Shown here in pieces: positions 1 to 51,259 of a DNA stretch of 64,000 bases. This DNA comes from Candidatus Krumholzibacteriota bacterium (GTDB taxonomy: Bacteria > Krumholzibacteriota > Krumholzibacteriia > Krumholzibacteriales > Krumholzibacteriaceae). Location: NCBI GenBank assembly GCA_016931295.1, contig JAFGEZ010000004.1:34745-98744 (forward strand). Direction: 5' to 3'. A model generated the notes under the pieces. That model saw only the letters and a program-made list of their open reading frames with translations, was not told the origin of the DNA and searched no databases. Both the position numbers and the translations under genes were made by a program. Each line of letters begins with the position of its first letter. The stretch's first letter is position 1.

Positions 1-98
1 AATACGGCCTGATTTTGCCCTCCGGGGGGGAACGGAAGTCAATTGAACGTTCGAAAGCCGTCGGCGAGCCCCGACGCCGGCTAACGCGGAACGGCAAT

Positions 99-1148
99 AT
101 GCGCTTTATCGATGCGACGAATTTCGAGAGACTGCTGAAGAAGCTCTCCGGCGACGGAGAGCTTTATGTTCCTGTGCGGAACGAGGAGACCGGCAAGCTC
201 CACCTCGAGCACGTCGAGGCATTTCCCCTGCCCGGGGAGATGACGCTCGAAGGCATCCGGACGGTCGAGCCGCTCAAGGGGATCGCGCAGCTGCTGCGGC
301 GCCCCGTGGCGGAGTACCCGTCCCCGGACGTCGACGAGATCGAGGCGGCGAACGGGCCCGTGACGATCGTCGTCGGCGCGCGCGCCTGCGACATCGCCGC
401 GCTCGAGCTCGTCGACAAGGTCCTCCTCGAGGGCGAGTTCGAGGATCCGTTCTATCGCGCGCGGCGCGAGAAAATGATCGTCATCGGCGCCGACTGCACC
501 GGGTGCGGGGATTCCTGCTTCTGCAACCTCCTCGGCGCCGGGCCCTGGCCGAAAAGCGGGTTCGACCTCGCCGTGTCGAAGGTCGGCGGCGGGTATCTCG
601 TCGAGAGCGGGTCCGATCGCGGAAAGACGATCGTCGAGGAGCACGGCGAGCTCTTCACCGAGCCGCGCGACGGGCAGAAGGAGGCGCGGGACGAGAAACG
701 GAACGAGGTCGTCCGCCTCCTCGAGGAGCAGAACGGCGGCTATCCCGCCGCGGAGGGGCTTCCCGAGAAATTGCGCGCATCGCTGGCAAGCGAGGTCTGG
801 AACGAGATCTCCGCGCGGTGCGTCGAGTGCGGCGCATGCACGAACATCTGCCCCACGTGCTATTGTTTCCTCCTCTACGACCAGAAATCCGGCGAGGAGA
901 CCGGCCAGCGGGTGATGACCTGGGATTCCTGCCAGGTCTCCGGGTACGCGCGCATGGCGGGGATGGGAACGCCGCGGCCGCGGCTGACCGATCGCGTCAA
1001 GCATCGCTTCTATCACAAGTACGACTATCTCGTGTTGAGTCACGGGGCGATCTACTGCACCGGATGCGGCCGGTGCATCGATACCTGCTCGGCCGGCATC
1101 GACATGCGCGATGCCTTCCGCCGGGTCGTCGCAACGGTCGCCGAGTAG
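99..1148 (+). CDS. 4Fe-4S cluster electron-transfer subunit, AsrA / sulfhydrogenase-beta (HydB)-like
   Basis: 349-aa product from internal ATG at 99 (same frame as track ORF 15..1148). Multiple Cys motifs (CTGCGDSCFC, CVECGACTNICPTCYC, CTGCGRCIDTC). Size and motif pattern match the AsrA/HydB family. The stop is 13 nt upstream of the AsrB-like gene. Confidence 0.6.
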   Translation: MRFIDATNFERLLKKLSGDGELYVPVRNEETGKLHLEHVEAFPLPGEMTLEGIRTVEPLKGIAQLLRRPVAEYPSPDVDEIEAANGPVTIVVGARACDIAALELVDKVLLEGEFEDPFYRARREKMIVIGADCTGCGDSCFCNLLGAGPWPKSGFDLAVSKVGGGYLVESGSDRGKTIVEEHGELFTEPRDGQKEARDEKRNEVVRLLEEQNGGYPAAEGLPEKLRASLASEVWNEISARCVECGACTNICPTCYCFLLYDQKSGEETGQRVMTWDSCQVSGYARMAGMGTPRPRLTDRVKHRFYHKYDYLVLSHGAIYCTGCGRCIDTCSAGIDMRDAFRRVVATVAE

Positions 1149-1160
1149 AGGGAGCGTGGG

Positions 1161-1979
1161 ATGAAGAACCCGTACTATCCCATCGACACCGTCGTCGAGG
1201 ACATCATCACCGAGACCCCGACCATCAAGACATTCTGCCTGAAACCGGTCCGCCCGATCGAGTTCCGCGCCGGCCAGTTCATGCAGCTCACGGTCCCCGG
1301 GGTCGGCGAGGCGCCGTTCACTCCCTCCTCGGATCCGAACGTCTCCGAGCGGATGGAGATCACGATCCTGAAGACCGGCAAGATCACCGACGCGCTCCAC
1401 GACCTCAAGCCCGGCGCCGCGGTCGGGCTCAGGGGGCCCTTCGGAAAGGGGTATCCCCTCGACCGGCTCGTCGGCAAGGAAGTGCTCGTCGTCGGCGGCG
1501 GCGTCGGGCTCGCGCCGTTGCGCGCGCTGATCTACGCCCTCTTCGACGACCCGTCGAGGTACGAGCGCATCTCGATCAAGTACGGGGCCCGCTGCCCCGA
1601 GGAGCTCTGCTTCCGACGCCAGTACGACGAGTGGTCCCGGATCGCGCCGAACGTCGATCTCACCGTCACGATCGACGTCCCCGCGCCCGCCTGGGACGGG
1701 CGCGTCGGCCTGGTGACGACCCTGCTCGACGACCTCGATATCAACCTCGACGAGAGCTACGCGCTGTCCTGCGGACCGGAGATCATGCTCAAGTTCGTCA
1801 CCCTCAAACTGCTCGAGGTCGGATACAAGCCGCCGCAGATCTATCTCTCGATGAACCGGAAGATGTCATGCGGCATGGGCAAGTGCGGACGGTGCAACGT
1901 CGGCCATTACTATCTCTGCGTCGACGGACCCGACATGTGCTACGACAAGATCAAACACGTTCCGAACGTATTCGGCTAA
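1161..1979 (+). CDS. FAD/NAD(P)-binding oxidoreductase subunit with C-terminal 2Fe-2S motif, AsrB / HydG / PyrK-like
   Basis: 272 aa. Flavodoxin-reductase-like fold signature (RAGQFMQL..., GGGVGLAPL). C-terminal CGMGKCGRCNV...C cluster motif. Tightly coupled to the upstream 4Fe-4S subunit. Confidence 0.65.
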   Translation: MKNPYYPIDTVVEDIITETPTIKTFCLKPVRPIEFRAGQFMQLTVPGVGEAPFTPSSDPNVSERMEITILKTGKITDALHDLKPGAAVGLRGPFGKGYPLDRLVGKEVLVVGGGVGLAPLRALIYALFDDPSRYERISIKYGARCPEELCFRRQYDEWSRIAPNVDLTVTIDVPAPAWDGRVGLVTTLLDDLDINLDESYALSCGPEIMLKFVTLKLLEVGYKPPQIYLSMNRKMSCGMGKCGRCNVGHYYLCVDGPDMCYDKIKHVPNVFG

Positions 1980-2010
1980 ACCAGGGCGAACGAGCCCGGG
2001 GACAGTACCC

Positions 2011-3798
2011 ATGAGCGACCTACGAAACAACTGCTCCTTCTGTTCGCTGGCCTGCCCCCTCGTGCTGCGCGGCGGCGGGCGCGGCCCCCTCTTCACCGCC
2101 GAGTCGCTCCTCTCGCTCGACTGGGACGAGCGGGAGGACTCGAAGTACGGCGGCAGCCTCTGCGCCCGCGGCAATGCGGCGGTGGAGTTCCTGTCGCACC
2201 CGGAACGGCTGGGCGATTCCTTCGTTCTCGGCGAACGGTCCACCCGGGACGCGGCCGTCACCGAGACGGCGAAAAATCTCGCCGCGGTGATCGAGGAGGG
2301 CGGCCCCGACGACATCGGTATCCTGCTGGGCGAGAATCTCACCGTGGAGGAGGCCTCCCTCGCCGCGGCCCTCGCCCGGGGGATCGGCACGAAGAACATC
2401 GCGCTCTTCGCACCGGACGACGCGCCGCTCTTCCGCGCCTGGCTCGCGTGCGATCTCTCCGGCGTCAAGCCGGCGGGGACGAAGCCTCCCGGCGAGCGCC
2501 AGGTCGCGCTGATCGTCGGCGATTCCTTCTCCGAGCACCCCTGCACGGCCAAGCGGGTGCTGCCGGGCAAGTACGGCGCGCGGGGAAGCGAGGTCATCGT
2601 CGTGAGCCCCGAGGTCAACCACGCCGCGTGGTTCGCCAACAGGCATCTCCGCTGCGCGCCCGGAGGCGAGGCCGCGGTCACGCTCGGCCTCGTCAAGGCG
2701 GCGGCCGCGGCGAGCGGCGCCGCGCTCCCCGACGGGCTGGCCTCCTTCGTCGCCGGCGTCGACTGGAACGAGATCGAGCGCCTCGGCGGCGTCAAGAAGG
2801 ACGACATCGAGGGAGCCGCCGCGGCGATGCTCGGCGCGGTGAGGGTGCGTTCCTTCGTCTCGAATATCTTCGGCAGGATGGGAGCCCCCGGGCTCGTCTC
2901 CCTCTTCACCGAGGCGGCCACGAGGCTCTGCCCGGGAACGGCCGTATTCGAGCCGCAGTTCGTCCAGCAGAACACGTGGGGGATCCACCGGGCGATCGCG
3001 GGCGCCGCCGCGCCGGACGTCATGAAGAAGCTCGGCGGGGCGGAGCTGAAGGCGCTCGTGCTGCTGGGGCTGGACCTCTTCTCGGTCTACCCGGCCGCGC
3101 CGGTGGAGAAGGCGCTCCGCGACAAGAAATTCACCGTCACGACGCAGCTCTTCTGGAACCAGACCGCGGCGCGCGCGACGGTGGTTCTGCCCGCCGCCGG
3201 TCTCATGGAGAAGACGGGGACGGTGCGGCCGACCTTCGATCCGAACGACGACTTCGTCCGCGGCGACGTGCTGCCCCCGCCGGGCGGCGCCGTCACCGAC
3301 GCCGAGTTCATCCGCCTTCTCGCGGGGGAGATGGACGTCGACCTGAACGAGGCGGCCGAGGCCCCGGCGGCGAGAGCCGCCTCCTTCGCCGTCGTCGCCA
3401 CGGACTGGAGCGCGTACACGAACCTGATGCGGGAGATCGATACGGCCGAGGTGGTGCTCATACCGTGGAGCGAGCCGGCGCACGCGGCCGACGGGTCGCT
3501 GAGCCGCCGGTTCCACTGGTCCACGGTCACCTGCCCCGGGCCCGTGCTGATGATATCCAACGAGTTCGCCGACGAGATGAAGCTGTCGTCTGGCGACAGC
3601 GTCACGGTTTCCTCGGAAGGCGGAGACGCGGTACTGCCGGTCGAAACGACGACCAAGCTCTGCGGCAAGGTCGTCGGCGCGACGATCCACTTTCCCTCCG
3701 TCCGCCGGCTGTTCCCGTGGCGGCTCGACGAGGGGAACGGGGAGATCCTCCTCGCGCCGGTGCCGGTGACCGTCGGACGCCAGGGTGAGAAGAGCTGA
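2011..3798 (+). CDS. molybdopterin-oxidoreductase (MopB) family subunit, FdhA/NuoG-like, 595 aa
   Basis: N-terminal CxxCxxxC...C motif (NNCSFCSLACP...SLCARG) of the Mo-bisPGD 4Fe-4S domain. No in-frame TGA, so no selenocysteine. Shorter than canonical FdhH. Lies between the AsrAB-like pair and the hydrogenase core. Confidence 0.55.
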   Translation: MSDLRNNCSFCSLACPLVLRGGGRGPLFTAESLLSLDWDEREDSKYGGSLCARGNAAVEFLSHPERLGDSFVLGERSTRDAAVTETAKNLAAVIEEGGPDDIGILLGENLTVEEASLAAALARGIGTKNIALFAPDDAPLFRAWLACDLSGVKPAGTKPPGERQVALIVGDSFSEHPCTAKRVLPGKYGARGSEVIVVSPEVNHAAWFANRHLRCAPGGEAAVTLGLVKAAAAASGAALPDGLASFVAGVDWNEIERLGGVKKDDIEGAAAAMLGAVRVRSFVSNIFGRMGAPGLVSLFTEAATRLCPGTAVFEPQFVQQNTWGIHRAIAGAAAPDVMKKLGGAELKALVLLGLDLFSVYPAAPVEKALRDKKFTVTTQLFWNQTAARATVVLPAAGLMEKTGTVRPTFDPNDDFVRGDVLPPPGGAVTDAEFIRLLAGEMDVDLNEAAEAPAARAASFAVVATDWSAYTNLMREIDTAEVVLIPWSEPAHAADGSLSRRFHWSTVTCPGPVLMISNEFADEMKLSSGDSVTVSSEGGDAVLPVETTTKLCGKVVGATIHFPSVRRLFPWRLDEGNGEILLAPVPVTVGRQGEKS

Positions 3799-3800
3799 GT

Positions 3801-4280
3801 ATGGAGAAGAGAGTCTACATCAATATGAACCTGTGCATCGGCTGCCGCGCCTGCGCCGCCGCCTGCGCGCAGGGGCATCACGACCAGGGGCTGCTCAAGC
3901 ACGGCCACGTCGAGGAAGAGGCCCTCCTGCCGATGCACTGCCGTCACTGCGACACGCCGCTGTGTCTCGAGGTCTGCCCGCAGGAGGCGATCAAGAAGAA
4001 GGAGGACGGCACGATCATCCGCATGAGCCATCTCTGCATCGGCTGCAAGTCGTGCATCATGTCCTGCCCCTTCGGCGTGATGTTCATGCATTCCACGTGG
4101 CACGTCTCGCCGAAGTGCGATCTCTGCCACGACCGCGTCGCCGACGGGAAAACGCCCCGCTGCGTCGCGACCTGCACGTCCGGCGCGCTGGTCTTCGAGG
4201 AACTCGCGACCCTCGAGAAGATGCAGAAACGCGCGGTCGAGGGCGGACGGTATTTCACCCGCTTCATGCTCAAGCGATAG
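3801..4280 (+). CDS. multi-cluster 4Fe-4S ferredoxin, HycB/HyfA-like
   Basis: 159 aa with four CxxCxxCxxxCP-type motifs (CIGCRACAAAC, CRHCDTPLCLEVCP, CIGCKSCIMSCP, CDLCHD...C). Confidence 0.7.
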   Translation: MEKRVYINMNLCIGCRACAAACAQGHHDQGLLKHGHVEEEALLPMHCRHCDTPLCLEVCPQEAIKKKEDGTIIRMSHLCIGCKSCIMSCPFGVMFMHSTWHVSPKCDLCHDRVADGKTPRCVATCTSGALVFEELATLEKMQKRAVEGGRYFTRFMLKR

Positions 4281-4292
4281 CGGAGAGGTCAC

Positions 4293-5225
4293 ATGGACGC
4301 TGCCAAGTACGTGCTCAACTACCTCGTGTTCCCGGGATTCCTCTTCTCGGCGATCGTCGGGCTGCTGACCACCTGGGTGGACCGGAAGGTCACGGCCCGC
4401 GTGCAGTGGCGGGTAGGCCCCCCGTGGTACCAGCCCTTCGCCGACACGGTGAAACTGATGGGCAAGGAGGTCGTCGTGCCCGCCGACGCGCGGCGCACGG
4501 GATTCCTCCTCATGCCCGTCGTCGGGCTCGCCGGCGCCACGCTCGCATCGACGATCCTGTGGATGGTCAATCTCTATCCCGGGGCCTCCTTCGTCGGCGA
4601 CACGATCGTCGTGATCTACGTCATGACGATCCCGGCGATCTCGATGATCCTCGGCGGCAGCGCCTCGGGCAACCCCCTCGGCGTCCTCGGGGCGAGCCGC
4701 GAGATGAAACTGCTCTTCGCCTACGAGCTGCCCCTCGTCCTCGCCGTGCTGACCACGGTGTACAAGGCGGGAAGCTTCTCCTTCCAGGATATCGTCGCCT
4801 ACCAGGACGCGAACGGGATCATGCTCGGATCCGTCTCGGGCGTCCTCGCCTTCATCGTGATGATCTTCTGCGCGCAGGCGAAGGCGACGATGCTCCCCTT
4901 CGACATCCCGGAGGCGGAGACCGAACTCGCCGGCGGCTCCCACATCGAGTATTCGGGAGCCCCGCTCGCGCTCGTTCGCCTGACGATGGCCATGATGCTC
5001 TTCGTGCTGCCGATATTCATCATCACCCTGTTCTGGGGCGGGATCGCCTTCGCCGGATGGCGCATCCTGACGTCGATCCTCAAGTACGTCGCGATCATCG
5101 TCATCATGGTGCTCATCAAGAACACGAACCCCCGCGTGAGGATCGACCAGGCGGTCCGGTTCTTCTGGGGTCCGATGTTCGTTTTGTCGGTCGTCGCCAT
5201 GATCCTGGCCGTGCTGGGATACTAG
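4293..5225 (+). CDS. membrane subunit NuoH/HycD/MbhM-like
   Basis: 310 aa, 8 predicted TM helices. N-terminus VLNYLVFPGF...WVDRKVTARVQWRVGPP is typical of the NuoH/HycD family. Confidence 0.8.
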   Translation: MDAAKYVLNYLVFPGFLFSAIVGLLTTWVDRKVTARVQWRVGPPWYQPFADTVKLMGKEVVVPADARRTGFLLMPVVGLAGATLASTILWMVNLYPGASFVGDTIVVIYVMTIPAISMILGGSASGNPLGVLGASREMKLLFAYELPLVLAVLTTVYKAGSFSFQDIVAYQDANGIMLGSVSGVLAFIVMIFCAQAKATMLPFDIPEAETELAGGSHIEYSGAPLALVRLTMAMMLFVLPIFIITLFWGGIAFAGWRILTSILKYVAIIVIMVLIKNTNPRVRIDQAVRFFWGPMFVLSVVAMILAVLGY

Positions 5226-5245
5226 GCCGCGGAGGAAATGCTGAT

Positions 5246-5659
5246 ATGTCCTTGGCGCTGAAAGCTCTCAAGAAATCGCCCTGGGTCTTCCACGTGAACA
5301 CGGGGGCGTGCAACAACTGCGACATCGAGGTGCTCGACGCCCTCACGCCGCGTTTCGACGTGGAGCGGTTCGGCATCGTGCTCGTCGGGAGCATCCGGCA
5401 CGCGGACGTGCTGCTGATCAGCGGCCCCGTCACCCGGAACGTGCTTCCGCGGCTGAAGCGCCTCTACGACCAGGCGCCGAGGCCGATCAAGGTGATCGTC
5501 ATCGGCGCGTGCGGCTGCCGCTGCGGGATCTTCCGCGACGGGTACAACATCGTCGGGCCCGTCGACAAGCATATTCCCGTCGACGCGTACATCCCGGGCT
5601 GCCCGCCGAAACCGGAGACGATCATCGCCGGCGTCGTGAAGGTACTGAACACGCTCTGA
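5246..5659 (+). CDS. [NiFe] hydrogenase small subunit (NuoB/HycG-like, proximal 4Fe-4S)
   Basis: 137 aa from ATG 5246 (RBS GGAGG at 5231). CNNCDIE, GACGCRCG and GCPP motifs of the NuoB-type N2/proximal cluster. Embedded in the 3' end of a longer artefactual ORF (3785..5659). Confidence 0.8.
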   Translation: MSLALKALKKSPWVFHVNTGACNNCDIEVLDALTPRFDVERFGIVLVGSIRHADVLLISGPVTRNVLPRLKRLYDQAPRPIKVIVIGACGCRCGIFRDGYNIVGPVDKHIPVDAYIPGCPPKPETIIAGVVKVLNTL

Positions 5660-5691
5660 ACGCGGATCGGCAAAGGACGGAAAGAGAAGCA

Positions 5692-6213
5692 ATGGAAAAA
5701 GAGGCACTGAAGAAGCGGATAGGCGACCGGTTCGGCGACAGCGTCCGGATCGAGGAGCGTTCGCCGGACCGCGTCTACGTCTGGGCGGAGAACGACATCT
5801 GGACCGATCTCGCCGGCTTCGTCTTCAACGACCTGGACTGCCGGTTCGACACGGGCGTGGCCGTCGACGACCGGGACGGCGTCGAGGTCATGTTCTTCTT
5901 CCCGGTCGACGCCGAGCACTACTATCTCACGGTCAAGACGTTCGCGCGCAAGCCGAAGCCCGAGCTCGAATCGATATCGAACCTGATACCGGGCGCGAAG
6001 TGGATCGAGCGGGAGATGTGGGAGATGTACGAGGTCTTCTTCCGGCATCACCCCGATCTCCGGCCGCTCCTGCGCGCCGACACCCGGCCCGACGATTTCT
6101 ATCCCGCGCGGCGCGAGACCAAGGAATCGCTCGAATGCACCCGCGTTCGGGACGACGGGAAGGAGCGCGCCGACGAGATCGCAGGGCGGCCGCTGAAGGG
6201 CAAGAACCCCTGA
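5692..6213 (+). CDS. NuoC/HycE-N-terminal-like 30 kDa subunit
   Basis: 173 aa from ATG 5692. Resembles the NuoC domain (hydrogenase large-subunit N-terminal domain encoded as a separate gene, as in MbhK). Confidence 0.7.
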   Translation: MEKEALKKRIGDRFGDSVRIEERSPDRVYVWAENDIWTDLAGFVFNDLDCRFDTGVAVDDRDGVEVMFFFPVDAEHYYLTVKTFARKPKPELESISNLIPGAKWIEREMWEMYEVFFRHHPDLRPLLRADTRPDDFYPARRETKESLECTRVRDDGKERADEIAGRPLKGKNP

Positions 6214-6238
6214 CACGCAGCAGAGAGGTGAGCTGGAC

Positions 6239-7459
6239 ATGGTGAAAAAGATCCCGATCGGCCCGTTCCATCCGATCCTCGAGGAACCGGAGTTCTTCGA
6301 GCTGCACGTGGACGGGGAGCGGGTCGTCGACATAGACATAACGATCGGATGGAGCCACCGCGGGATCGAGCTCCTCTCCGAGCACAAGACGTGGGACCAG
6401 GTGCCCTTCCTCGTCGAGCGCGTCTGCGGGATCTGCTCCTGCTCCCATCCCTACGCCTACGTCAAGGCGGTGGAGGACTGCGCCGGGATCGAGGTGCCGA
6501 TCCGCGCGCAGTACATCCGCGCGATCATCGCCGAGCTGGAGCGGCTCCACAGCCACCTGCTCTGGACCGGGTTGGCGGGGCATTTCCTCGGCTACAACAC
6601 GGTCTTCATGTGGACGTGGAAATACCGCGAGCCCCTCCTCGACATCCTCGAGGCGGTCACGGGCAACCGCAACCACTACGCGATGCTGCGGCCCGGCGGA
6701 GTGCGCCGCGACGTGCCGGCGGAGGAGATCCCGAACATCCTCACGATGCTGAACGAGCTCGAGAAGAAGAACGCGCTTCTCACCAACGCGATCGTCGACG
6801 ACCCGGTCATCCACGCGCGCACGAAGAACGTCGGCATCCTTCCGCTCGACAAGTGCCGCGAGTACGGTGCGCTCGGTCCGACGGCCCGCGCCGGCGGCTA
6901 CGACATCGATGCCCGGCGCGACCACCCGATCGACGTCTACGGCGAGCTGGATTTCGACGTCATCGTCTGCGAGAACGGGGACGTCTTCGACAAGGCCGTC
7001 GTCCGGCAGCGCGAGAATTTCGAGGCGATCAAGATCATCCGCCAGAGCCTGGAGAAGCTCAAGGCGCTGGGGGAGGGGCCGATCTGCACAGAGGTGCACG
7101 AGATCCCGCCCGGCGAGGGGATCGGCGTCTACGAGGCCCCGCGGGGCGAGGTGCTCCACTACGTCCGCTCGAACGGCGGGAACATGCCGATGCGGCACAA
7201 GATCCGGGCCCCGAGCTTCAACAACATCCTCACGAACGAGTACAGCGTCGTGGGGAACACCGTCGCGGACGCCGGGCTGATCACCGCCGCGGTCGATCCG
7301 TGCTACTCCTGCACCGAGCGGGTCGGCGTCGTCGACGCCTCCTCGGGCGACAGGAGCGTCCTGACCGAGGCCGATCTCATCCGGCTGTCGCAGGAGAAGA
7401 CCGAACAGATCAGGAAACGGCTGTCCAGGAACAGAACAGGTCGACCCTCGGCCGACTGA
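6239..7459 (+). CDS. group 4 [NiFe] hydrogenase large subunit (NuoD/MbhL/HycE-like)
   Basis: 406 aa. N-terminal L1 motif RVCGICSCSH and C-terminal L2 motif DPCYSCTER both carry Ni-Fe ligand cysteines. A 45-aa C-terminal extension follows the L2 Arg, consistent with endoprotease processing. Confidence 0.85.
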   Translation: MVKKIPIGPFHPILEEPEFFELHVDGERVVDIDITIGWSHRGIELLSEHKTWDQVPFLVERVCGICSCSHPYAYVKAVEDCAGIEVPIRAQYIRAIIAELERLHSHLLWTGLAGHFLGYNTVFMWTWKYREPLLDILEAVTGNRNHYAMLRPGGVRRDVPAEEIPNILTMLNELEKKNALLTNAIVDDPVIHARTKNVGILPLDKCREYGALGPTARAGGYDIDARRDHPIDVYGELDFDVIVCENGDVFDKAVVRQRENFEAIKIIRQSLEKLKALGEGPICTEVHEIPPGEGIGVYEAPRGEVLHYVRSNGGNMPMRHKIRAPSFNNILTNEYSVVGNTVADAGLITAAVDPCYSCTERVGVVDASSGDRSVLTEADLIRLSQEKTEQIRKRLSRNRTGRPSAD

Positions 7460-7472
7460 TGGAGCAGGATAC

Positions 7473-9326
7473 ATGAACGCACTTCTCTATCCCCTGGTTA
7501 TCCCGGCCCTCGCGGGGATCGTCCCCCTCTTCGTGCCGCGGAAAGGCAAGGTGGTGGCCGGCCTGGTCGCTCTCGCCGCCGCGGTCTGGACGTTCCTCCT
7601 CTCGATCCGGCTCTTCGGCGTCGGGACGGGCGAGTTCGGCTTCACCCTCTTCGACTTCGGCGGTGGGCTCGCGCTCGATTTCGGTCTCCGGCTCTACAGC
7701 TTCAGCGCCGTCATCCTGCTCTTCGTCTCGCTCTTCGCCGTGCTGATCGTCCTCTACTCGATCGGCTACCTGTGGAAGCGCGACACGTCGAGCGCCTACT
7801 ACTCCTTCATCCTCTGGACGCTCGCCGCCGCGGCGGGAGCCGTCCTCTCGGCGAACCTGCTGATGCTGCTGATCTTCTGGGAGATGCTCACGCTGCTCCT
7901 CTACCTGCTCGTCAACATGGGCGGCCCCGGGCACGAGGAAGCCGGGCTGAAGTGCTTCGCCGTCCTCGGCATCAGCGACGCCGCGCTCATGCTCGGCGTG
8001 CTGCTCGCCTGGTTCAACTACGGGACGCTCGACATGTCCCGGCTCGTCGTCTCCACGGCCACCCCGACCGGCGTCGCGATCTTCCTGCTCCTCTTCGCCG
8101 GCGCGATCGCCAAGGCCGGGGCGATGCCGCTGCACTCGTGGGTGCCCGCGATCGCGAAATCGACGCACGCCTCGGTGATGGCCTTCCTCCCGGCGGCCCT
8201 CGACAAACTCCTCGGCATCTACCTGCTGGCGAGGATCTCGCTCGACATCTGCCGCATCCAGGGCGGATCGGCGCTCTCGCTGGTGATGATGATCGTCGGC
8301 GCGGTCACGATCCTCTTCGCGGTCCTGATGGCCCTCGTCCAGCACGATCTCAAGAAGCTCCTCTCCTTCCACGCGGTGAGCCAGGTGGGCTACATGGTGC
8401 TCGGCGTGGGGAGCGGGATCCCCGTCGCGATCGTCGGCGGGCTCTTCCACATGCTGAACAACGCCGTCTACAAGAGCGGGCTCTTCCTCTCGGCGGGCGC
8501 GGTGGAGAAGCGCGCCGGAACGACCGAGCTGGACAAGCTCGGCGGCCTCGCCCGGCTGATGCCGGTGACCTTCGTCACCACGCTCGTCGCGGCCCTGTCG
8601 ATCTCCGGCGTGCCGCCCTTCAACGGCTTCGCCTCGAAATGGCTCGTCTACCAGGGGATGCTCGAGGGACGGCAGATCGTCTTCCTCGTCGTCGCCATAT
8701 TCGGTTCGGCCCTGACGCTCGCCTCCTTCGTCAAGGTCATCCACTCCCTCTTCCTCGGACGGCGACCGGAGCGGCTCGAGGGTGTGCGCGAGGTGGATTT
8801 CTCGATGCAGCTGCCGATGATCTTCCTCGCGATCCTCTGCGTCGCCTTCGGCGTGTTCGCCCGGTACCCGATCGAGCGCTTCATCGCGCCGGCCGTGGGA
8901 AGCACGGGGATCGTCTTCACCGGCGGGGAGATCGACGTCGCCGGCGGCCTCTGGAGCCCCGGCCCGGCCACGGTGATGATCGTGATCGGGGTCGTCGTCG
9001 GCCTCCTCCTCTACGCGTTGAGCAACATGCGCCACGTCCGCGTCGACGAGAATCCCTGGGTCGGCGGCAACATCATGGACCGGGAGGAGACGCGGATACC
9101 GGGAACGCATTTCTACAAGACCGTAACCGAGCTCAACCCCCTCTTCAGCGCGGGATTCCGCGACGGCGAGAAGGGGGCGCTCGATCCGTACAATGTCATC
9201 GGCAGGCTCGGGGGCGCCTTCGTCCAGGTGCTGCGGGGGCTTCACAACGGGATTCTCAGCACGTACCTGTCCTGGGCGATCATCGGGCTGGGAGTGATTG
9301 CGTTCATACTGATGTTCCACTTCTAG
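7473..9326 (+). CDS. NuoL/MrpA-like antiporter-type membrane subunit
   Basis: 617 aa polytopic membrane protein. NuoL/MrpA/HyfB family conserved segments (WEMLTLLLYLLV, HAVSQVGYMVLGVG, YKSGLFLSAGAV). Confidence 0.8.
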   Translation: MNALLYPLVIPALAGIVPLFVPRKGKVVAGLVALAAAVWTFLLSIRLFGVGTGEFGFTLFDFGGGLALDFGLRLYSFSAVILLFVSLFAVLIVLYSIGYLWKRDTSSAYYSFILWTLAAAAGAVLSANLLMLLIFWEMLTLLLYLLVNMGGPGHEEAGLKCFAVLGISDAALMLGVLLAWFNYGTLDMSRLVVSTATPTGVAIFLLLFAGAIAKAGAMPLHSWVPAIAKSTHASVMAFLPAALDKLLGIYLLARISLDICRIQGGSALSLVMMIVGAVTILFAVLMALVQHDLKKLLSFHAVSQVGYMVLGVGSGIPVAIVGGLFHMLNNAVYKSGLFLSAGAVEKRAGTTELDKLGGLARLMPVTFVTTLVAALSISGVPPFNGFASKWLVYQGMLEGRQIVFLVVAIFGSALTLASFVKVIHSLFLGRRPERLEGVREVDFSMQLPMIFLAILCVAFGVFARYPIERFIAPAVGSTGIVFTGGEIDVAGGLWSPGPATVMIVIGVVVGLLLYALSNMRHVRVDENPWVGGNIMDREETRIPGTHFYKTVTELNPLFSAGFRDGEKGALDPYNVIGRLGGAFVQVLRGLHNGILSTYLSWAIIGLGVIAFILMFHF

Positions 9327-9345
9327 GGCAGGGAAAGGCGGAAGG

Positions 9346-9939
9346 ATGGAGATCTTTCTCCTGTTATTGCTGGCGTTCATGATCATCGGGTCGCTCGTGG
9401 CGATCGAGACGAAGAACCTCCTTTCCTCGGTCATCTCGGTGGGCGTCGTCGGATTCAGTCTCAGCATCGCGTTCCTGATGCTCGGGGCCCCCGACATCGC
9501 GATCACGCAAGTGGTCGTCGAGATCCTGATCCTCGTGATCCTGATCCGCGCGACCATCACGACCGACAACACGGCGATCGAGGGCGGCAGGGACACCTTC
9601 CCCTTCGTCTCGAGCCTCATCTTCTTCGGGCTGTTTCTGATCTTCGCGTGGTTCGCCATCCAGGAGCTGCCCCGGTTCGGCGAGCCCCTCATGCGGGTCT
9701 CCGACCACTACCTCCGCACGGGGGCCGAGAAGACGGGCGCGACGAACATCGTGACGAGCGTCCTCCTCGATTTCCGGGGATACGACACGGTCGGCGAGGC
9801 GACGGTGCTCTTCACCTCGATCGTCGGCGCCTTCGTGATCCTGCGGCGGCGCGGGCGCAAGAAGGCCGGCGAGGAGGATCACGAGAAGTTCGGGATCCTC
9901 GAGGACGACGACATAAAGAAGACGTTCGAGGGCTTCTAG
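9346..9939 (+). CDS. MrpB-family membrane subunit, part 1 (MbhD/DUF4040-like)
   Basis: 197 aa hydrophobic protein. LLDFRGYDTVGEATVLF motif characteristic of MnhB/MrpB. Confidence 0.6.
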   Translation: MEIFLLLLLAFMIIGSLVAIETKNLLSSVISVGVVGFSLSIAFLMLGAPDIAITQVVVEILILVILIRATITTDNTAIEGGRDTFPFVSSLIFFGLFLIFAWFAIQELPRFGEPLMRVSDHYLRTGAEKTGATNIVTSVLLDFRGYDTVGEATVLFTSIVGAFVILRRRGRKKAGEEDHEKFGILEDDDIKKTFEGF

Positions 9940-9952
9940 GGGGGAGCCGGCG

Positions 9953-10441
9953 ATGGACAAGAACGAGCTGATCAACGACCAGACCAAGGGCATGACCCCC
10001 ATCGTGAAGACGATCGTCCGTTTCGCCATGGGCATCATCGTGATCTTCGGCGCATACATCGTCCTCTACGGGCACCTGACCCCGGGGGGCGGGTTCGCCG
10101 GCGGGGTGATACTCGCCTGCGGCTACATCATCCTGACCCTCGCATTCGGCAAGGAGCTCGCCTTGGGGAAGCTGAGCAACACGGGGGCGTCGATCCTCGA
10201 CAACTCCGGGGCCCTTCTCTTCGTCTCGATCGGGCTTCTCGGCTATCTCGGGGGCGTGTTCTTCCTGAACTTCCTCCCGAAGGGCAGGATGTTCGACCTG
10301 GTCAGCGCGGGGACGATCCCCCTGTGCAATATCGCCATCGGCCTGAAGGTGACCGCGTCGGTCTTCGCCGTGTTCATCGCGCTGTCGATCTTCGGCCGGT
10401 TCATCTACGAACAAATCGGGGAAGACCAGAACGAGGAGTGA
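9953..10441 (+). CDS. MrpB-family membrane subunit, part 2 (MbhE/F-like)
   Basis: 162 aa. HLTPGGGFAGGV motif typical of MnhB. Together with 9346..9939 forms a split MrpB as in Mbh complexes. Confidence 0.6.
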   Translation: MDKNELINDQTKGMTPIVKTIVRFAMGIIVIFGAYIVLYGHLTPGGGFAGGVILACGYIILTLAFGKELALGKLSNTGASILDNSGALLFVSIGLLGYLGGVFFLNFLPKGRMFDLVSAGTIPLCNIAIGLKVTASVFAVFIALSIFGRFIYEQIGEDQNEE

Positions 10442-10447
10442 CGACGG

Positions 10448-10798
10448 ATGATCCTGTACTTCCTTTCCCTGGTGTTGCTGGTGATGGGGCTCTACTGCCT
10501 CATCGCGAAGAAGAATATCGTGAAGAAGATCATCGGGATCACCATCACGGAGTACTCCATCAACCTCTTCCTCGTCCTGCTCGGGTACAGGCAGGGGGGC
10601 GTCGCGCCGATCCTGCTCAAGGGGATGAAGAGCGGCGAGATCGTCGAGCACGCGGTCGACCCGTTGCCGCAGGCGCTCGTGTTGACCTCCATCGTGATCG
10701 GGCTCGGCGTGCTCGCCCTGATGGTGTCGATGTGCCTGCGCATCTACGAGAAGTACAAGACGTTCGACATGTCAGAGATCAACAGGCTCAGGGGCTAG
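10448..10798 (+). CDS. MrpC/NuoK-like subunit
   Basis: 116 aa with 3 TM helices. Position and size fit MnhC. Confidence 0.7.
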   Translation: MILYFLSLVLLVMGLYCLIAKKNIVKKIIGITITEYSINLFLVLLGYRQGGVAPILLKGMKSGEIVEHAVDPLPQALVLTSIVIGLGVLALMVSMCLRIYEKYKTFDMSEINRLRG

Positions 10799-10814
10799 AC
10801 AAGCCGGGGTGCAC

Positions 10815-12308
10815 ATGCAGGGATATTATCCGTTATTCACGGCGTTACCGCTCGCGGCGGCGTTCTTCAACCTCCTCGTGACGAAGATCAACCAGAAGTT
10901 CGCCGACGTCATCGCCTTCGTCGTGACCGGGGCGCTGGCCGTCATGGCGGTCCTCATGCTCTTCGAGCCGTCCTTCGTCTACCACGTCGGTGGGCACGAC
11001 GCCCCCTGGGGCATCCTCCTCGTCAACGACGGCCTGAGCACGCTCATGCTGGTGGTGATCAACGTCATCGGCTTCCTCGCCATGATCTTCTCGCTCCGGT
11101 ACATGACCACCTACACGGCCAAGCCGAAGTATTTCACGCTCTACATGCTGATGATCGCGGGGATGAACGGCGTCGTCATCACGGGCGACCTGTTCAACCT
11201 CTACGTCTTCCTCGAGATCGCGTCGATCGCCTCCTACGCCCTCGTCGGGTTCGGCACGGGGCGGCGGGAGCTCGAGGCCTCCTTCAAGTACCTGATCCTC
11301 GGGAGCGTCGCCTCGACGGCCGTCCTCTTCGGGATCGCCTTCATGTACTCGATGACCGGCACGCTGAACATGCCGGACATGGCGCAGCAGCTCGCCCTCG
11401 TGGGGATGAACCGGGCCGTGGCCTTCGTCATCGCCCTCTTCATCATGGGCTTCGGTTTGAAGGCCTCCACGGTGCCCTTCCACGCCTGGCTGCCCGACGC
11501 CCACCCGAGCGCGCCGGCGCCGATCTCCGCGATGCTCTCCGGGGTGCTGATCAAGGCGCTCGGGATCTACACGATCATGCGCGTCATGTTCCACGTCATC
11601 GGGCGGAACGCCCTCGTGGCCTCGATACTGATGTTCCTCGGGGCCCTCTCGATGGTCGTCGCCGGGCTCATCGCGATCGGCCAGAGCGATTTCAAGCGGA
11701 TGCTCGCCTATTCGTCGATCAGCCAGATGGGATACGTGCTGATCGGCGTCGGCGTGGCGCTCAACCCCGCGGCGACGCCGGTCGTCGCCGCCTTCGGGCT
11801 CGTCGGCGGGCTCTTCCACCTCGTCAACCACGCCGTCTTCAAGTCGCTCCTCTTCCTCGCTTCCGGCGCCGTCGAATACTGCACCGGCACGAGAGACCTG
11901 CACAAGCTCGGCGGGCTCATCAGGAAGATGCCGGTCACCGGCGTCGCGACGGCCATCGGCTCGATGTCGATCGCCGGGCTGCCGCCCTTCAACGGGTTCG
12001 TCTCGAAACTCCTGATCTTCATCGCCCTTTTCAAGGGCGGATACATGATCTACGGCATCGTCGCCGTGGCCGTGGGGTTCGTGACCCTGTTCTACTTCCT
12101 CAAGCTGCAGCGCGACGTGCTCTTCGGCTCGTTGCCGGCCGCCCTCGCCTCGGTGCGGGAAGCGCCCTTCGCCATGACGCTGCCGCTCGTCATCCTCGCG
12201 CTTCTCTGCCTCGCGATGGGAGTGGGATACACGTTCGTCGACTCGCATATGCTCCAGGCGGCCAAGGACGCCCTCCTGGACCAGGTGGCGTACATCAACC
12301 TCTTGTAA
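10815..12308 (+). CDS. MrpD/NuoM-like antiporter-type membrane subunit
   Basis: About 497 aa from ATG 10815 (track ORF starts at GTG 10809). NuoM/MrpD family motifs (HAWLPDAHPSAPAPISA, HAVFKSLLFLASGAV). Confidence 0.8.
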   Translation: MQGYYPLFTALPLAAAFFNLLVTKINQKFADVIAFVVTGALAVMAVLMLFEPSFVYHVGGHDAPWGILLVNDGLSTLMLVVINVIGFLAMIFSLRYMTTYTAKPKYFTLYMLMIAGMNGVVITGDLFNLYVFLEIASIASYALVGFGTGRRELEASFKYLILGSVASTAVLFGIAFMYSMTGTLNMPDMAQQLALVGMNRAVAFVIALFIMGFGLKASTVPFHAWLPDAHPSAPAPISAMLSGVLIKALGIYTIMRVMFHVIGRNALVASILMFLGALSMVVAGLIAIGQSDFKRMLAYSSISQMGYVLIGVGVALNPAATPVVAAFGLVGGLFHLVNHAVFKSLLFLASGAVEYCTGTRDLHKLGGLIRKMPVTGVATAIGSMSIAGLPPFNGFVSKLLIFIALFKGGYMIYGIVAVAVGFVTLFYFLKLQRDVLFGSLPAALASVREAPFAMTLPLVILALLCLAMGVGYTFVDSHMLQAAKDALLDQVAYINLL

Positions 12309-12335
12309 GGGGCCGGAAAAGGGAAAAGGGAGAAG

Positions 12336-12821
12336 ATGAAACGCATCATTCACTTTATCATCCTGATGATCGTCTGGCTGCTGCTGACCTGGTCGCTCCA
12401 GTGGCAGGAAGTGCTCGTCGGCGTTGTCGTCTGCCTGCTCGCCGAGCTGCTGCTCGGTGACATCTTCCCCCACGGCGCGGTCTACATCTTCAGCCCCGTG
12501 CGGCTCTTCTGGATGATCGTCTACACCGTCGTCTTCATCGCCTTCGTCGTCAGGGCGAATTTCGACGTGGCCTACCGCGTGCTGAACATCTACATGCCGA
12601 TCCGGCCGGGCATCGTGAAGGTGCGGACGGCGCTCAAGACCGACATGGCGAGGACCTTCCTCGCCAACTCGATCACGCTCACGCCGGGAACGCTCAGCGT
12701 CGACATGATCGACGACCATCTCTACGTGCACTGGATCAACATCACATCCGAGGATCCCGAGAAGGAGACGGAGATCATCGTGCGGCGGTTCGAGAAGCTG
12801 CTAGAAAGGGTGTTCGAGTAG
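12336..12821 (+). CDS. MrpE-like subunit
   Basis: 161 aa small membrane protein following mrpD. RBS AAGGGAGAAG upstream. Confidence 0.55.
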   Translation: MKRIIHFIILMIVWLLLTWSLQWQEVLVGVVVCLLAELLLGDIFPHGAVYIFSPVRLFWMIVYTVVFIAFVVRANFDVAYRVLNIYMPIRPGIVKVRTALKTDMARTFLANSITLTPGTLSVDMIDDHLYVHWINITSEDPEKETEIIVRRFEKLLERVFE

Positions 12822-13075
12822 TGAACGCAATTATCGCGCTATTGATTCTGTGCATCTTCCTGTGCATGTACCGGGTCGGGAAGGGCCCGACCGCGCCGGA
12901 CCGGACGGTCGCGATCGACATTCTCGGCACGCTGGTGGTGGGGTTCTGCGCCCTCTACACCATCATCACGGGGAAGGACCTCTACATGAACATCGGCATC
13001 TCGTGGGCGCTGCTCAGCTTCATCGGCACCCTCGCCCTGGCCAAGTATCTCGAAGGGAGGGGTTTCGATGAGTGA
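12821..13075 (+). CDS. MrpF-like subunit
   Basis: 84 aa from a GTG start overlapping the upstream stop by 1 nt. MnhF-like hydrophobic mini-protein. Confidence 0.55.
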   Translation: MNAIIALLILCIFLCMYRVGKGPTAPDRTVAIDILGTLVVGFCALYTIITGKDLYMNIGISWALLSFIGTLALAKYLEGRGFDE

Positions 13076-13409
13076 GACGATCGGACTGATACTGCTCATC
13101 GTGGGCATCTCCTTCGACGTCGTCGGGTGCATCGGGCTGGTGCGGCTCCCCGACATCTACAACCGCCTCCAGGCGGCGACGAAATGCGTCACGCTCGGCA
13201 CCTGCATGATCCTGTTGAGCGTCCCCTTCTACACGGGATTCAACTCGATGGGCATGAAGGCGCTGCTGTGCATCTGGTTCGTGCTGCTGACATCGCCGAC
13301 GGGGGCGCACGCCATCGCGCGCGCCGCCCACCGCTCGGGGATCCGCCTCTGGGAGGGCAGCGTCATGGACAAGTACGCGGAGGACCGCGAGGGCGCCGAG
13401 GACAATTGA
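13068..13409 (+). CDS. MrpG-like subunit
   Basis: 113 aa. Start overlaps the upstream gene by 8 nt. MnhG-like. Confidence 0.6.
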   Translation: MSETIGLILLIVGISFDVVGCIGLVRLPDIYNRLQAATKCVTLGTCMILLSVPFYTGFNSMGMKALLCIWFVLLTSPTGAHAIARAAHRSGIRLWEGSVMDKYAEDREGAEDN

Positions 13410-13444
13410 CGATCACGTAACGACACCGGGGGTTCAGACCGGCC

Positions 13445-14071
13445 ATGCGGAAACCGAAACTCAGAGAGCTGAAGGAGGCCCTGAACGCACTGTTCACGGG
13501 CCCGTACACGAGCAAGTTCCCCAAGGTGGCGCCGACGGTCCCCGCTCATTTCCGGGGCACGCCCACGTACGTCCCCGACGAGTGCGTCGGCTGCGGCGCG
13601 TGCGGCCAGGTCTGCCCCGCCGGCGCGATCGAGATCGCCGACGAGTTCAGCGAGGAGAAGGGCCGGCTCGTCCGCCGGATCACGCGCGACTGGGGCAAGT
13701 GCATCTTCTGCTCCCAGTGCTTCGTCTACTGCATCACGAAGAAGGGGATCGAGCTCGATCCCGACTTCGAGAAGTCGACGCTCGACCCGGCGACCAACAT
13801 CAACGAGCACGAGAAGGAGCTTCTCTTCTGCGAGAAGTGCGGGGGCGTGATCACCGCTGTCGACCACGTGACGTGGATGGCGCGCAGGCTCGGCGAGCTC
13901 GCCTTCGCCAACCAGACCTTCATGGTGGCGAAGATGGGCGAGCTGAAGCTGGTCGAGGAGACGGCGCCCCGCGAGGCCGAACGCGGTCTCGAACGGCAGG
14001 ACTTCATCCGTATCCTCTGCCCGAACTGCCGCGCCTCCTACATCCTCACCGACGAGTGGGGACAGAGCTGA
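13445..14071 (+). CDS. NuoI/MbhN-like 2x[4Fe-4S] subunit
   Basis: 208 aa. CVGCGACGQVCP and CIFCSQCFVYC motifs. Confidence 0.75.
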   Translation: MRKPKLRELKEALNALFTGPYTSKFPKVAPTVPAHFRGTPTYVPDECVGCGACGQVCPAGAIEIADEFSEEKGRLVRRITRDWGKCIFCSQCFVYCITKKGIELDPDFEKSTLDPATNINEHEKELLFCEKCGGVITAVDHVTWMARRLGELAFANQTFMVAKMGELKLVEETAPREAERGLERQDFIRILCPNCRASYILTDEWGQS

Positions 14072-14096
14072 CGAGGGGAAGAGACGGACATGCGAC

Positions 14097-14124
14097 GGGG
14101 CCCCCGCCGGGGGGCCTTTTTTTT
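14097..14124 (+). terminator. putative Rho-independent terminator (GC stem + T8)
   Basis: GGCCCCC/GGGGGCC stem with 4-nt loop at 14099..14116 followed by TTTTTTTT 14117..14124. Located after the nuoI-like gene and before hycI. Confidence 0.45.
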
Positions 14125-14181
14125 CGGGACGCCGGCCAACCCCGACCGCGGGACGCCGGCCGGACGAAAGGGCGAGGATCG

Positions 14182-14661
14182 ATGACGGACGAGGCCGGAA
14201 AGATCGTCGAACGGCTCCGCGGCAGGCGCTTCGGCGTCGTCTGCGTGGGAAACGATTTCCGGGGTGACGACGGGGCCGGTCCGGCCCTCGCCGCCGTGCT
14301 GGCCGGGCGGAAGATCGCCGCGCCGGTCGTCGACGCGACGGAGGTCCCGGAGAACTACGGCGGCTGGCCGGCGAAGGAGGGGCTCGAGAGCGTCCTCTTC
14401 GTCGACGCCGTCGAGATGGGAGCCGAGCCGGGCGTCTTCCAAATCATCCCCCTCGGGAAGCTGATGGTCTCGGCGAGCAGCACCCACCGCCTCTCGCTCC
14501 ACTTCACGATCCGCTTTCTCGAGAACGACTGGGACGGCGACGCCTTCCTCGTGGGCGTGCAGCCGAAGTCGATCGAGCTGGACGCCGGCCTCTCCGACGA
14601 GGTCCGCGCCGGCGTCGAAGCCCTCGCCGACGCGATCGAGCGGGCGGCGGGGGCGCCCTGA
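14182..14661 (+). CDS. hycI: hydrogenase maturation endoprotease (HycI/HybD family)
   Basis: 160 aa from ATG 14182. VGNDFRGDDGAGPA motif of hydrogenase maturation proteases. Sits in the 3' part of artefactual ORF 13582..14661. Confidence 0.75.
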   Translation: MTDEAGKIVERLRGRRFGVVCVGNDFRGDDGAGPALAAVLAGRKIAAPVVDATEVPENYGGWPAKEGLESVLFVDAVEMGAEPGVFQIIPLGKLMVSASSTHRLSLHFTIRFLENDWDGDAFLVGVQPKSIELDAGLSDEVRAGVEALADAIERAAGAP

Positions 14662-14689
14662 GGCGCCCCCGAATTTCCGCAGAAACCTC

Positions 14690-33975: not shown

Positions 33976-34006
33976 ACCGGCCGCGCCCGCGGCGCGCCGC
34001 CAGCCG

Positions 34007-40153: not shown

Positions 40154-40194
40154 CGTCGTTTCCTTTCACCGTCGGTTCGTCTTGGGCCCGCCGC

Positions 40195-51076: not shown

Positions 51077-51259
51077 CGCGCCTCCCCGTTTCCGCCGGCC
51101 CCGGTTGCGGGGCCGACCACCTATGAATAGCACATGGCGGCCGGCGATGCAAACGCCCCGCTTTCCGACGAAATGACTGTGCAGGCGGGCGCCGGGCGGG
51201 TACAATCAGGCGACGCGGCCGCCAGGGAGCCGCCTGCCGGAACGGGAGGAGAACGGACG

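Follow-up and report, generated by a model that had tools for sequence, protein, structure and literature searches.

A group-4 [NiFe]-hydrogenase operon at positions 99-14071 (plus strand) of a 64,000-nucleotide stretch of DNA from a Candidatus Krumholzibacteriota bacterium (contig JAFGEZ010000004.1; hereafter the window) combines four parts: a flavoprotein pair related to AsrA and AsrB, a MopB protein which lacks the active-site residues of formate dehydrogenase (FDH), a soluble arm of the formate hydrogenlyase (FHL) type and a membrane arm of the Mbh/Mrp type. We consider it slightly more likely than not that the products form one membrane complex, an NAD(P)H:H+ oxidoreductase that would be reversible and coupled to ions, with the dead MopB serving as an iron-sulfur (Fe-S) adaptor. 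More tentatively, it might be hypothesized that this is the first NAD(P)H-coupled ion-translocating [NiFe] hydrogenase, that is, a machine of the FHL/Mbh type in which an FDH was turned into a cofactor-less adaptor and a sulfhydrogenase-type NADPH flavoprotein was recruited. A preliminary description of this DNA had proposed a pyridine-nucleotide/flavin module and a NuoG-like MopB attached to an Mrp-linked group-4 hydrogenase, and an arrangement of this kind, with MopB working in the manner of NuoG and NAD(P)H as the predicted partner, is the reading which the present analysis supports best. The genes and the terminator of the operon are as follows.

99-1148, plus strand: AsrA/HydB-like Fe-S subunit, 349 amino acids (PF17179 Fer4_22, 101.7 bits)
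1161-1979, plus strand: AsrB/HydG/PyrK-like flavoprotein, 272 amino acids, with sites for flavin adenine dinucleotide (FAD), NAD(P)H and [2Fe-2S] (PF00970 FAD_binding_6, PF00175 NAD_binding_1, PF10418 DHODB_Fe-S_bind)
2011-3798, plus strand: degenerate FdhF/FdhA-type MopB, 595 amino acids, which keeps only the FS0 [4Fe-4S] site (weak Molybdopterin and Molydop_binding matches)
3801-4280, plus strand: HycB/CooF-like ferredoxin, 16 cysteines, four [4Fe-4S] clusters predicted (PF13247 Fer4_11)
4293-5225, plus strand: NuoH/HycD-like membrane anchor (PF00146, 229.8 bits; 30% identity to HycD)
5246-5659, plus strand: NuoB/HycG-like hydrogenase small subunit (PF01058; 48% identity to HycG)
5692-6213, plus strand: NuoC-like subunit (PF00329, 67.5 bits)
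6239-7459, plus strand: group-4 [NiFe]-hydrogenase large subunit, 406 amino acids (PF00374 and PF00346; L1 and L2 motifs)
7473-9326, plus strand: NuoL/MrpA/HycC-like antiporter-type subunit (PF00361, 170 bits; 30% identity to HycC)
9346-9939, plus strand: MbhD/MbhE-like (NuoJ-like) membrane subunit (PF13244, PF20501)
9953-10441, plus strand: MnhB-like subunit (PF04039)
10448-10798, plus strand: MrpC/NuoK-like subunit (PF00420)
10809-12308, plus strand: MrpD-like antiporter subunit (PF00361, 229.7 bits)
12336-12821, plus strand: MrpE (PF01899, 139 bits)
12821-13075, plus strand: MrpF (PF04066)
13068-13409, plus strand: MrpG (PF03334)
13445-14071, plus strand: HycF-type NuoI-like subunit with two [4Fe-4S] sites and a CxxC...CPxC quartet (best NCBIfam match PRK12387)
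14097-14128, plus strand: intrinsic terminator (9-bp stem, 7 GC pairs, T6)

The coordinates, lengths and strand of the first three genes and the cysteine signature of MopB are as the preliminary description had given them, while the gaps behind these genes, which it had counted as 13, 32 and 3 nt, measure 12, 31 and 2 nt, an off-by-one difference. The hycB/nuoH/nuoB/nuoC/nuoD-like core that it had placed downstream of the trio is present and is followed by a complete Mrp-type set and the NuoI/HycF-like gene. NuoE and NuoF are absent from the operon, in line with the suggested complex-I-like arrangement without NuoEF. The 17 genes, whose GC content at third codon positions (GC3) ranges from 0.87 to 0.97, are separated by 2-31 nt or overlap by short stretches. 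The only strong intrinsic terminator, which was the top match of the scan, lies 3' of the last gene, with seven of the nine stem pairs being GC and the stem being followed by TTTTTT; no comparable site occurs between the operon genes, including the junction between the AsrAB-like pair and the remainder. Thus, the region from 99 to 14071 is predicted to be a single transcription unit, and the possibility that the AsrAB-like pair belongs to a separate transcript with its own terminator does not hold. A promoter scan of positions 1-15000 returned no sigma-70-type site, which is uninformative for the host phylum and with just 98 nt preceding the first gene.

The large subunit of the hydrogenase retains both Ni-Fe-binding CxxC motifs, CGICSCSH at residue 63 (L1) and DPCYSCTER at residue 353 (L2), which conform to the group-4 signatures C[GS][ILV]C[AGNS]xxH and [DE][PL]CxxCxx[HR]. 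Pfam and NCBIfam matches complete the group-4 set with a NuoB-type small subunit, NuoC, a NuoH-type anchor, a NuoI-type protein with two [4Fe-4S] sites and antiporter-like subunits, and the core is a true group-4 [NiFe] hydrogenase by sequence. Beyond L2, the large subunit carries a C-terminal extension of 45 amino acids similar to that of HycE, whose C-terminal tail is removed by HycI. Its best relatives of solved structure are Pyrococcus furiosus MbhL (6cfw_L, 309 bits) and Escherichia coli HycE (7z0s_E, 268 bits, 38% identity), and by bit score it is set between MbhL (group 4d) and HycE (group 4a). The cysteines of the NuoB/HycG-like subunit are at positions 22, 25, 89/91/93 and 119. The HycB-like ferredoxin shares 28% identity with E. 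coli HycB (E 1e-17), and the best NCBIfam match of the NuoI-like protein is the formate hydrogenlyase Fe-S subunit PRK12387. The cysteine quartet of the latter (Cys129/132/192/195) aligns with Cys117/120/155/158 of E. coli HycF, which in the structure of E. coli FHL bind a metal ion in a patch facing FdhF (PMC9474812). With a four-cluster HycB-type ferredoxin and a HycF-type CxxC...CPxC quartet both present, the soluble arm is of the FHL type and not of the Mbh type. The membrane arm, comprising NuoH, two antiporter-like subunits and MrpB/C/E/F/G-like proteins, is by the same kind of evidence assigned to the Mbh/Mrp type. The spacer of the quartet in the NuoI-like protein, CxxC-x59-CPxC, is much longer than the x34 of E. 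coli HycF, with an insert at residues ~133-165.

The MopB protein carries the signature for FS0 (Cys8-x2-Cys11-x3-Cys15...Cys51). A profile of its family aligns end to end with E. coli FdhF (hhalign probability 99.5, 564 columns) and reaches hhalign scores of 305-401 with FdhF/FdhA against 151 with NuoG, strongly suggesting that MopB derives from FdhF/FdhA and is closer to these than to NuoG. An AlphaFold2 model of MopB (predicted local distance difference test 74; poor at residues 1-76 and in several loops) resembles FDH and Nap structures with template modelling scores of 0.6-0.67 and Foldseek E-values of 1e-24 to 1e-20. The active site was compared in 42 family members, with profile scores from those of near-identical proteins down to ~125 bits. 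The position of Sec140 of FdhF is variable among these relatives (D, E, N, T, S, A, V, Q or G) and is Asp136 in the window protein; that of His141 is an invariant aspartate (Asp137 here); that of Arg333 is again variable (Phe317 here); and Lys44 is replaced by arginine in the family. Aligned against catalytic FDH, MopB therefore matches FdhF over its full length, yet lacks the Sec/Cys, His and Arg of the active site. As all three are missing across the family, a formate-linked variant with a non-selenocysteine MopB, which the preliminary description had offered as a second option, is refuted, and MopB is not an FDH but would be a catalytically dead relative of one; its score with TIGR01591 is 96 bits, against a cut-off of 666. 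The term NuoG-like used there is appropriate with respect to function but not to phylogeny, the protein being closer to FdhF/FdhA and devoid of the N-terminal 2Fe-2S/4Fe-4S domains of NuoG; TIGR01973 matches its C-terminal part only (41 bits). In the family, the FS0 cysteines C8, C11 and C51 are conserved to 100% and C15 to 90%. One subclade of four of 41 members (locus L035, 1944-3785; P0122 and P0123) has aspartate in place of Cys15 (CPFCSLQD...), which suggests an Asp-ligated or a 3Fe cluster.

Several observations bear on whether MopB still holds a molybdenum or tungsten cofactor. A consensus of 92 positions was derived from residues conserved in at least seven of eight true Mo/W-bis-pterin enzymes, namely FdhF, FdnG, NapA and five FDH-like proteins with Cys-His; the MopB family retains 39 of these and the cofactor-less NuoG of E. 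coli retains 37, a loss of ~58%. MopB is the least conserved of 16 subunits compared in ~28 related genomes, with a mean identity of 59% as opposed to 82% for the large subunit, 83% for AsrB and 89% for NuoB, and it takes the same rank when six deeply diverged loci are compared (26-31%, AsrB 52-70%), so that it appears to be the fastest-evolving of the subunits compared. The orthologues of Margulisiibacteriota (L044, 10001-11401) and Omnitrophota (L045, 3565-5064) comprise merely 466-499 amino acids and stop at the position of residue ~503-510 of the window protein; the whole C-terminal Molydop_binding domain, the pterin-capping domain IV, is missing from them, with the rest of the operon being kept, while the domain is present in the 595-residue MopB of the window. 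The Mo/W-bis-pterin cofactor has most likely been lost from MopB. Because of the NuoG-like loss of the consensus, the high evolutionary rate and the absence of domain IV from sister clades, the conserved role of MopB is more likely that of an FS0 carrier which holds its partners together than catalysis at a pterin site.

The assignment of the first two genes as AsrA/HydB-like and AsrB/HydG-like was borne out by hidden Markov model (HMM) searches of Pfam and NCBIfam and by alignment to P. furiosus sulfhydrogenase I (SHI). The AsrA-like protein scores 170.6 bits with ShyB, 157 with HydB and 140 with AsrA (cut-off 323), and the AsrB-like protein scores 189 bits with AsrB (cut-off 288.6). As the scores of the pair lie below the NCBIfam equivalog cut-offs of HydB/G, ShyB/C and AsrA/B alike, the two proteins are best regarded as homologues in a new context and not as orthologues. 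Over essentially their full lengths, they match the β (9nez_B, 146 bits, with all cysteine groups conserved) and γ (9nez_C, 166 bits) subunits of SHI. The AsrB-like protein has the FAD motif, PFT at residue 52, GGVGLAP at 113 and PyrK-type [2Fe-2S] ligands in the spacing C237-x4-C242-x2-C245-x7-C253. Its NAD-binding domain is intact and highly conserved, and it ranks among the most conserved subunits at both evolutionary depths. The pair has thereby the full complement of group-3b β/γ (diaphorase) features, i.e. the cysteine clusters and the FAD, NAD(P) and [2Fe-2S] motifs. No group-3 α/δ hydrogenase partner is found beside it; MopB, HycB and the group-4 core follow in every locus examined. 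An AsrABC sulfite reductase was considered and rejected, AsrC, the siroheme subunit, being absent from the operon and the AsrA and AsrB scores being below cut-off.

The co-occurrence of these genes extends far beyond the window. Homologues of MopB at 50-66% identity belong almost only to metagenome-assembled genomes (MAGs) of Candidatus Krumholzibacteriota and Latescibacteria, and the order AsrA-AsrB-MopB-HycB-NuoH-B-C-D-L-Mrp...-NuoI is found in all 32 genome loci, to the extent that their contigs cover it, while seven further, much more divergent loci share the order AsrA-AsrB-MopB-HycB-hydrogenase. When 1.84 billion representatives were searched with a profile, 150 matches fell below 1e-30, and all five distant single-domain matches of ~560-615 amino acids that were checked have the same neighbourhood. 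Altogether, each of the ~40 loci examined, which come from at least four candidate phyla (Krumholzibacteriota, Latescibacteria, Margulisbacteria and Omnitrophota among them), has the trio and HycB ahead of a group-4 hydrogenase, and the arrangement is far from chance. In some lineages (L036, L044, L045) MrpEFG are missing and hycI or hypA is the terminal gene; the input module is thus more constant than the membrane arm. Two of the loci (L038, 5136-5825; L045, 5599-6276) have an extra gene for 225-229 amino acids without a Pfam match between the hycB-like and nuoH-like genes, which is absent from the window. With respect to regulation, a gene of Rex architecture (Put_DNA-bind_N and CoA_binding) is located directly upstream of asrA on the same strand in an Omnitrophota genome (GCA_035506255.1; L045, 996-1628), which may indicate that the operon responds to NADH/NAD+ in that lineage. 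In two metagenome loci (L037, 3721-7190; L040, 679-4028), a sigma-54-dependent two-component system and a single-domain response regulator lie immediately upstream of asrA.

In the complex that we envisage, a soluble arm of the FHL type and a membrane arm of the Mbh/Mrp type would be joined in a single assembly. The soluble arm would lead from MopB via HycB and the HycF-type NuoI to the NuoB-type small subunit and the large subunit. MopB, in the position of FdhF, would keep FS0 and act as the Fe-S adaptor onto which the flavoprotein pair, homologous to the β/γ subunits of NADPH-oxidising group-3b enzymes, docks. Electrons might then pass from NAD(P)H to FAD, to the [2Fe-2S] cluster of the AsrB-like protein, to the [4Fe-4S] clusters of the AsrA-like protein and to FS0 of MopB, and onward through the four clusters of HycB, the two clusters of the HycF-like subunit and the proximal cluster to the Ni-Fe site, along a path that would be reversible. 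At textbook potentials of -320 and -414 mV, electron transfer from NAD(P)H to H2 has a standard free energy change of ~+18 kJ/mol and becomes roughly neutral near 10 Pa H2. As this direction is uphill, the Mrp-type arm would be expected either to spend an ion gradient or to pump ions in the reverse reaction or at very low H2 partial pressure. According to the first option, a H+/Na+ gradient would be spent to push H2 from NAD(P)H and the complex would act as a fermentative redox valve; according to the second, ions would be pumped when H2 reduces NAD(P)+ or when the partial pressure of H2 is very low.

A number of points weigh against such a complex. The use of NAD(P)H is deduced from homology of the pair to SHI β/γ and AsrAB, and direction and coupling are speculative, since the formation of H2 from NAD(P)H is endergonic at standard state. 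The AsrA-like protein might dock on either MopB or HycB. The window also contains genes for an indolepyruvate oxidoreductase-type enzyme and a ferredoxin; the organism would hence produce reduced ferredoxin as well, a possible donor to the hydrogenase. MopB has strongly conserved residues throughout its family (Asp137, Gly170-Asp171, Pro177, Glu220, Asn321, Gly324, Asp355, Glu400 and Trp503), from which it appears to be under more constraint than a mere spacer, and the 595-residue form may have residual cofactor binding. The AlphaFold2 model is of low confidence at residues 1-76, in the FS0 domain and in the cofactor-facing loops. The adjacency of Rex is seen in one locus only, and a search for the Rex operator (TTGTGAN6TCACAA, up to three mismatches) gave chance-level matches, none of them in the 98 nt upstream of the window operon.

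The strongest rival, in our judgement rather unlikely, is an ordinary ferredoxin-dependent hydrogenase of the Mbh type, to which AsrAB and MopB would provide an accessory or alternative port, for example by equilibrating NADP(H) with the Fe-S chain. It would be in accordance with MbhL, which depends on ferredoxin, giving the best match of the large subunit among solved structures (309 bits) and with the 2-oxoacid:ferredoxin oxidoreductase and ferredoxin encoded in the window, and HycB/CooF-type proteins can generally take electrons from several partners. A guess of "similar to Mbh" was also made for a related cluster in 2019 (PMC6349859). However, the soluble arm is of the FHL type and not the bare, ferredoxin-docking MbhN arm of Mbh, the four extra genes are strictly ordered in every examined locus across phyla, and the strong conservation of AsrB argues for a core rather than an accessory role. 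Still less probable, in our view, is a MopB that remains catalytic, with a Mo/W-pterin or other metal site involving the invariant aspartate, a substrate which is neither formate nor nitrate and to which the complex would couple H2, and AsrAB as a second redox port. Asp137, at the position of FdhF His141, adjoins the former ligand site and is one of several residues invariant in the family; the Mo ligand in NarG-type enzymes is an aspartate, and many MopB sequence motifs are kept in modified form. On the other hand, the position equivalent to the ligand itself is variable, the consensus of the Mo enzymes has been lost to the same extent (~58%) as in the cofactor-less NuoG, MopB evolves faster than any other subunit, and sister clades devoid of domain IV keep the same operon; no bis-pterin enzyme is known to hold its cofactor without this domain.

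We give little credence to a sulfur-linked enzyme, an H2:sulfur oxidoreductase with a logic akin to that of MBS. The AsrAB-like pair, in the role proposed for the β/γ pair of sulfhydrogenase, would then pass electrons from H2 to S0, polysulfide or some other compound of sulfur. Such a function might be read from the homology of the pair to SHI β/γ and AsrAB and from the HydDB table, where group 3b "may have sulfhydrogenase activity". It fits poorly with an operon which lacks an AsrC/siroheme subunit, with scores under the AsrA and AsrB equivalog cut-offs and with the intact, highly conserved NAD-binding domain. The large subunit, moreover, keeps all four Ni-Fe cysteines, unlike MBS/Mbx-type complexes, which do not. 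Finally, a conventional FHL of group 4a/4b that contains a cysteine-type FDH, as the full-length FdhF homology, HycB, the HycF-type subunit, the HycE-like C-terminal extension and the label "formate dehydrogenase" assigned to MopB by HMM annotation pipelines might imply, is hardly credible and is rejected at the sequence level, since Sec/Cys140, His141 and Arg333 are missing here and family-wide and TIGR01591 stays far below its cut-off.

If the NAD(P)H-coupled complex proposed here is real, it would represent a second solution, beside the electron-confurcating hydrogenases, to the thermodynamic problem of producing H2 from NAD(P)H, which is central to fermentation and syntrophy. Fermenting organisms would be able to release the electrons of NAD(P)H as H2 by spending an ion gradient, or to gain energy from H2-driven reduction of NAD(P)+, without flavin-based bifurcation. 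In evolutionary terms, the step by which complex I gained NuoG and its NADH module would have been repeated independently. Complex I has been proposed to originate from an ancestor similar to FHL that kept a dead FDH domain (NuoG), and the present complex would be a living counterpart of this, with intermediates in different phyla: a MopB that is dead but of full length, and versions devoid of domain IV. The cluster is widespread in uncultured phyla (Krumholzibacteriota, Latescibacteria, Margulisbacteria, Omnitrophota and Poribacteria) and the enzyme class is biochemically uncharacterised; annotation pipelines routinely give its genes the wrong labels "formate dehydrogenase", "NuoG" or "anaerobic sulfite reductase", so that the metabolism reconstructed for these MAGs is distorted.

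Elsewhere in the window, an indolepyruvate/2-oxoacid:ferredoxin oxidoreductase pair, a small ferredoxin, pyruvate kinase and citrate lyase (39572-42072, minus strand; 19119-19457, minus strand; 51134-56071, plus strand) point to an anaerobic, probably fermentative organism. No hyp, hycI, moa/moe or focA gene is found among the window open reading frames scanned, and the context is of no help regarding maturation or molybdenum cofactor supply. An open reading frame for 1594 amino acids on the plus strand (33968-38752) combines a complete AcrB/RND (resistance-nodulation-division) transporter domain (residues 17-1045, 541 bits) with an ABC (ATP-binding cassette) transporter ATPase (residues 1315-1457, 95 bits). 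The genes upstream of it encode OEP (28244-29752), HlyD (29775-30848) and another AcrB (30874-33975), and the frame represents an unusual RND-ABC fusion or else a read-through. Two proteins of ~1100 amino acids (20351-23668 and 24874-28206, both plus strand) have a C-terminal Golvesin_C domain as their only Pfam match, and the first of these lies in a patch of lower GC content (59% compared to ~68%; GC3 0.73 compared to >0.87 elsewhere) and may be of foreign origin.

The gene arrangement itself is not new to the literature. An "enigmatic" group-4 [NiFe] hydrogenase cluster was described for Saganbacteria RX5A by Matheus Carnevali et al. (2019, Nat Commun 10:463, PMC6349859, Supplementary Note 5), in a region with asrA, asrB, a cooF-like gene, a MopB with a single 4Fe-4S site that could not be classified as FDH, homologues of NuoBCDHI and Mrp-type subunits; its nearest relatives were from Zixibacteria and Omnitrophica. 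The extra subunits were proposed to be the oxidoreductase module of an Mbh-like enzyme and the function was left open (PMC6349859). Matched by description, the gene content is that of the window operon, and orthology is presumed on this basis; the lineages of that study are close to the Margulisbacteria and Omnitrophota in which homologous clusters were found here. The window locus is thus a member, from another phylum (a Krumholzibacteriota-type genome) and with a fuller membrane arm (the MrpA-G-like set), of a cluster type on record since 2019. That study did not report that the active site is missing family-wide or that domain IV has been lost, nor did it give relative evolutionary rates. 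A literature search on NAD(P)H-dependent group-4 hydrogenases and the AsrAB-MopB arrangement returned no mention beyond that study in the library searched, and no group-4 subgroup in the HydDB scheme is NAD(P)-coupled, the known donors being ferredoxin, formate and CO.

Among characterized enzymes, FHL-1 of E. coli (FdhF-HycBCDEFG; 7Z0S/7Z0T) has the same soluble order of MopB, HycB (four clusters), HycF (two clusters and the Cys4 metal site), HycG and HycE. HycE and HycG are 38% and 48% identical to the window subunits, and the HycE-like extension is common to both systems. In contrast to FHL-1, the window operon has a MopB without Sec/Cys-His-Arg, a separate NuoC gene, an Mrp-type membrane arm with two antiporter-like subunits and the additional AsrAB-like pair. 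A MopB and HycB-like input on a group-4 hydrogenase joined to a multi-subunit Mrp Na+/H+ module is also found, when compared by description, in the formate-respiring, Mrp-linked Fdh2-Mfh2-Mnh2 system of Thermococcus onnurineus (HydDB group 4b); there, however, MopB is a working FDH and no flavoprotein pair is present. The membrane-bound hydrogenase (MBH) of P. furiosus (6CFW; group 4d), the source of MbhL, shares the MbhD/E-, MnhB- and Mrp-like small subunits, but takes electrons from ferredoxin directly at MbhN and lacks HycB, MopB and the flavoprotein. Conversely, the β/γ pair of P. furiosus SHI (9NEZ; group 3b, NADP-coupled) is similar to the first two proteins of the operon, with conserved Cys, FAD and NAD motifs, and resides on a cytoplasmic group-3 α/δ dimer, whereas here MopB and HycB would link it to a group-4 enzyme in the membrane. 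A parallel in logic is provided by NuoG/Nqo3 of complex I, a cofactor-less, FDH-type relic with one [4Fe-4S] cluster (N7, equivalent to FS0) between an NAD(P)H flavoprotein and a core of the NuoB/C/D/H/I/L type, a place which MopB would take here. NuoG and the window MopB share the replacements K44 to R and N176 to D and a similar retention of the Mo-enzyme consensus. They differ in that the window operon has no NuoE or NuoF, that MopB starts at the FS0 motif (residue 8) without the domains for N1b, N4 and N5, that the flavoprotein is of the FAD/PyrK type instead of the NuoF type with flavin mononucleotide, and that the acceptor would be H+ at the Ni-Fe site instead of quinone. As the MopB family is closer to FdhF than to NuoG, the conversion of an FDH into an Fe-S adaptor in this lineage is suggested to be an event independent of that which gave rise to complex I.

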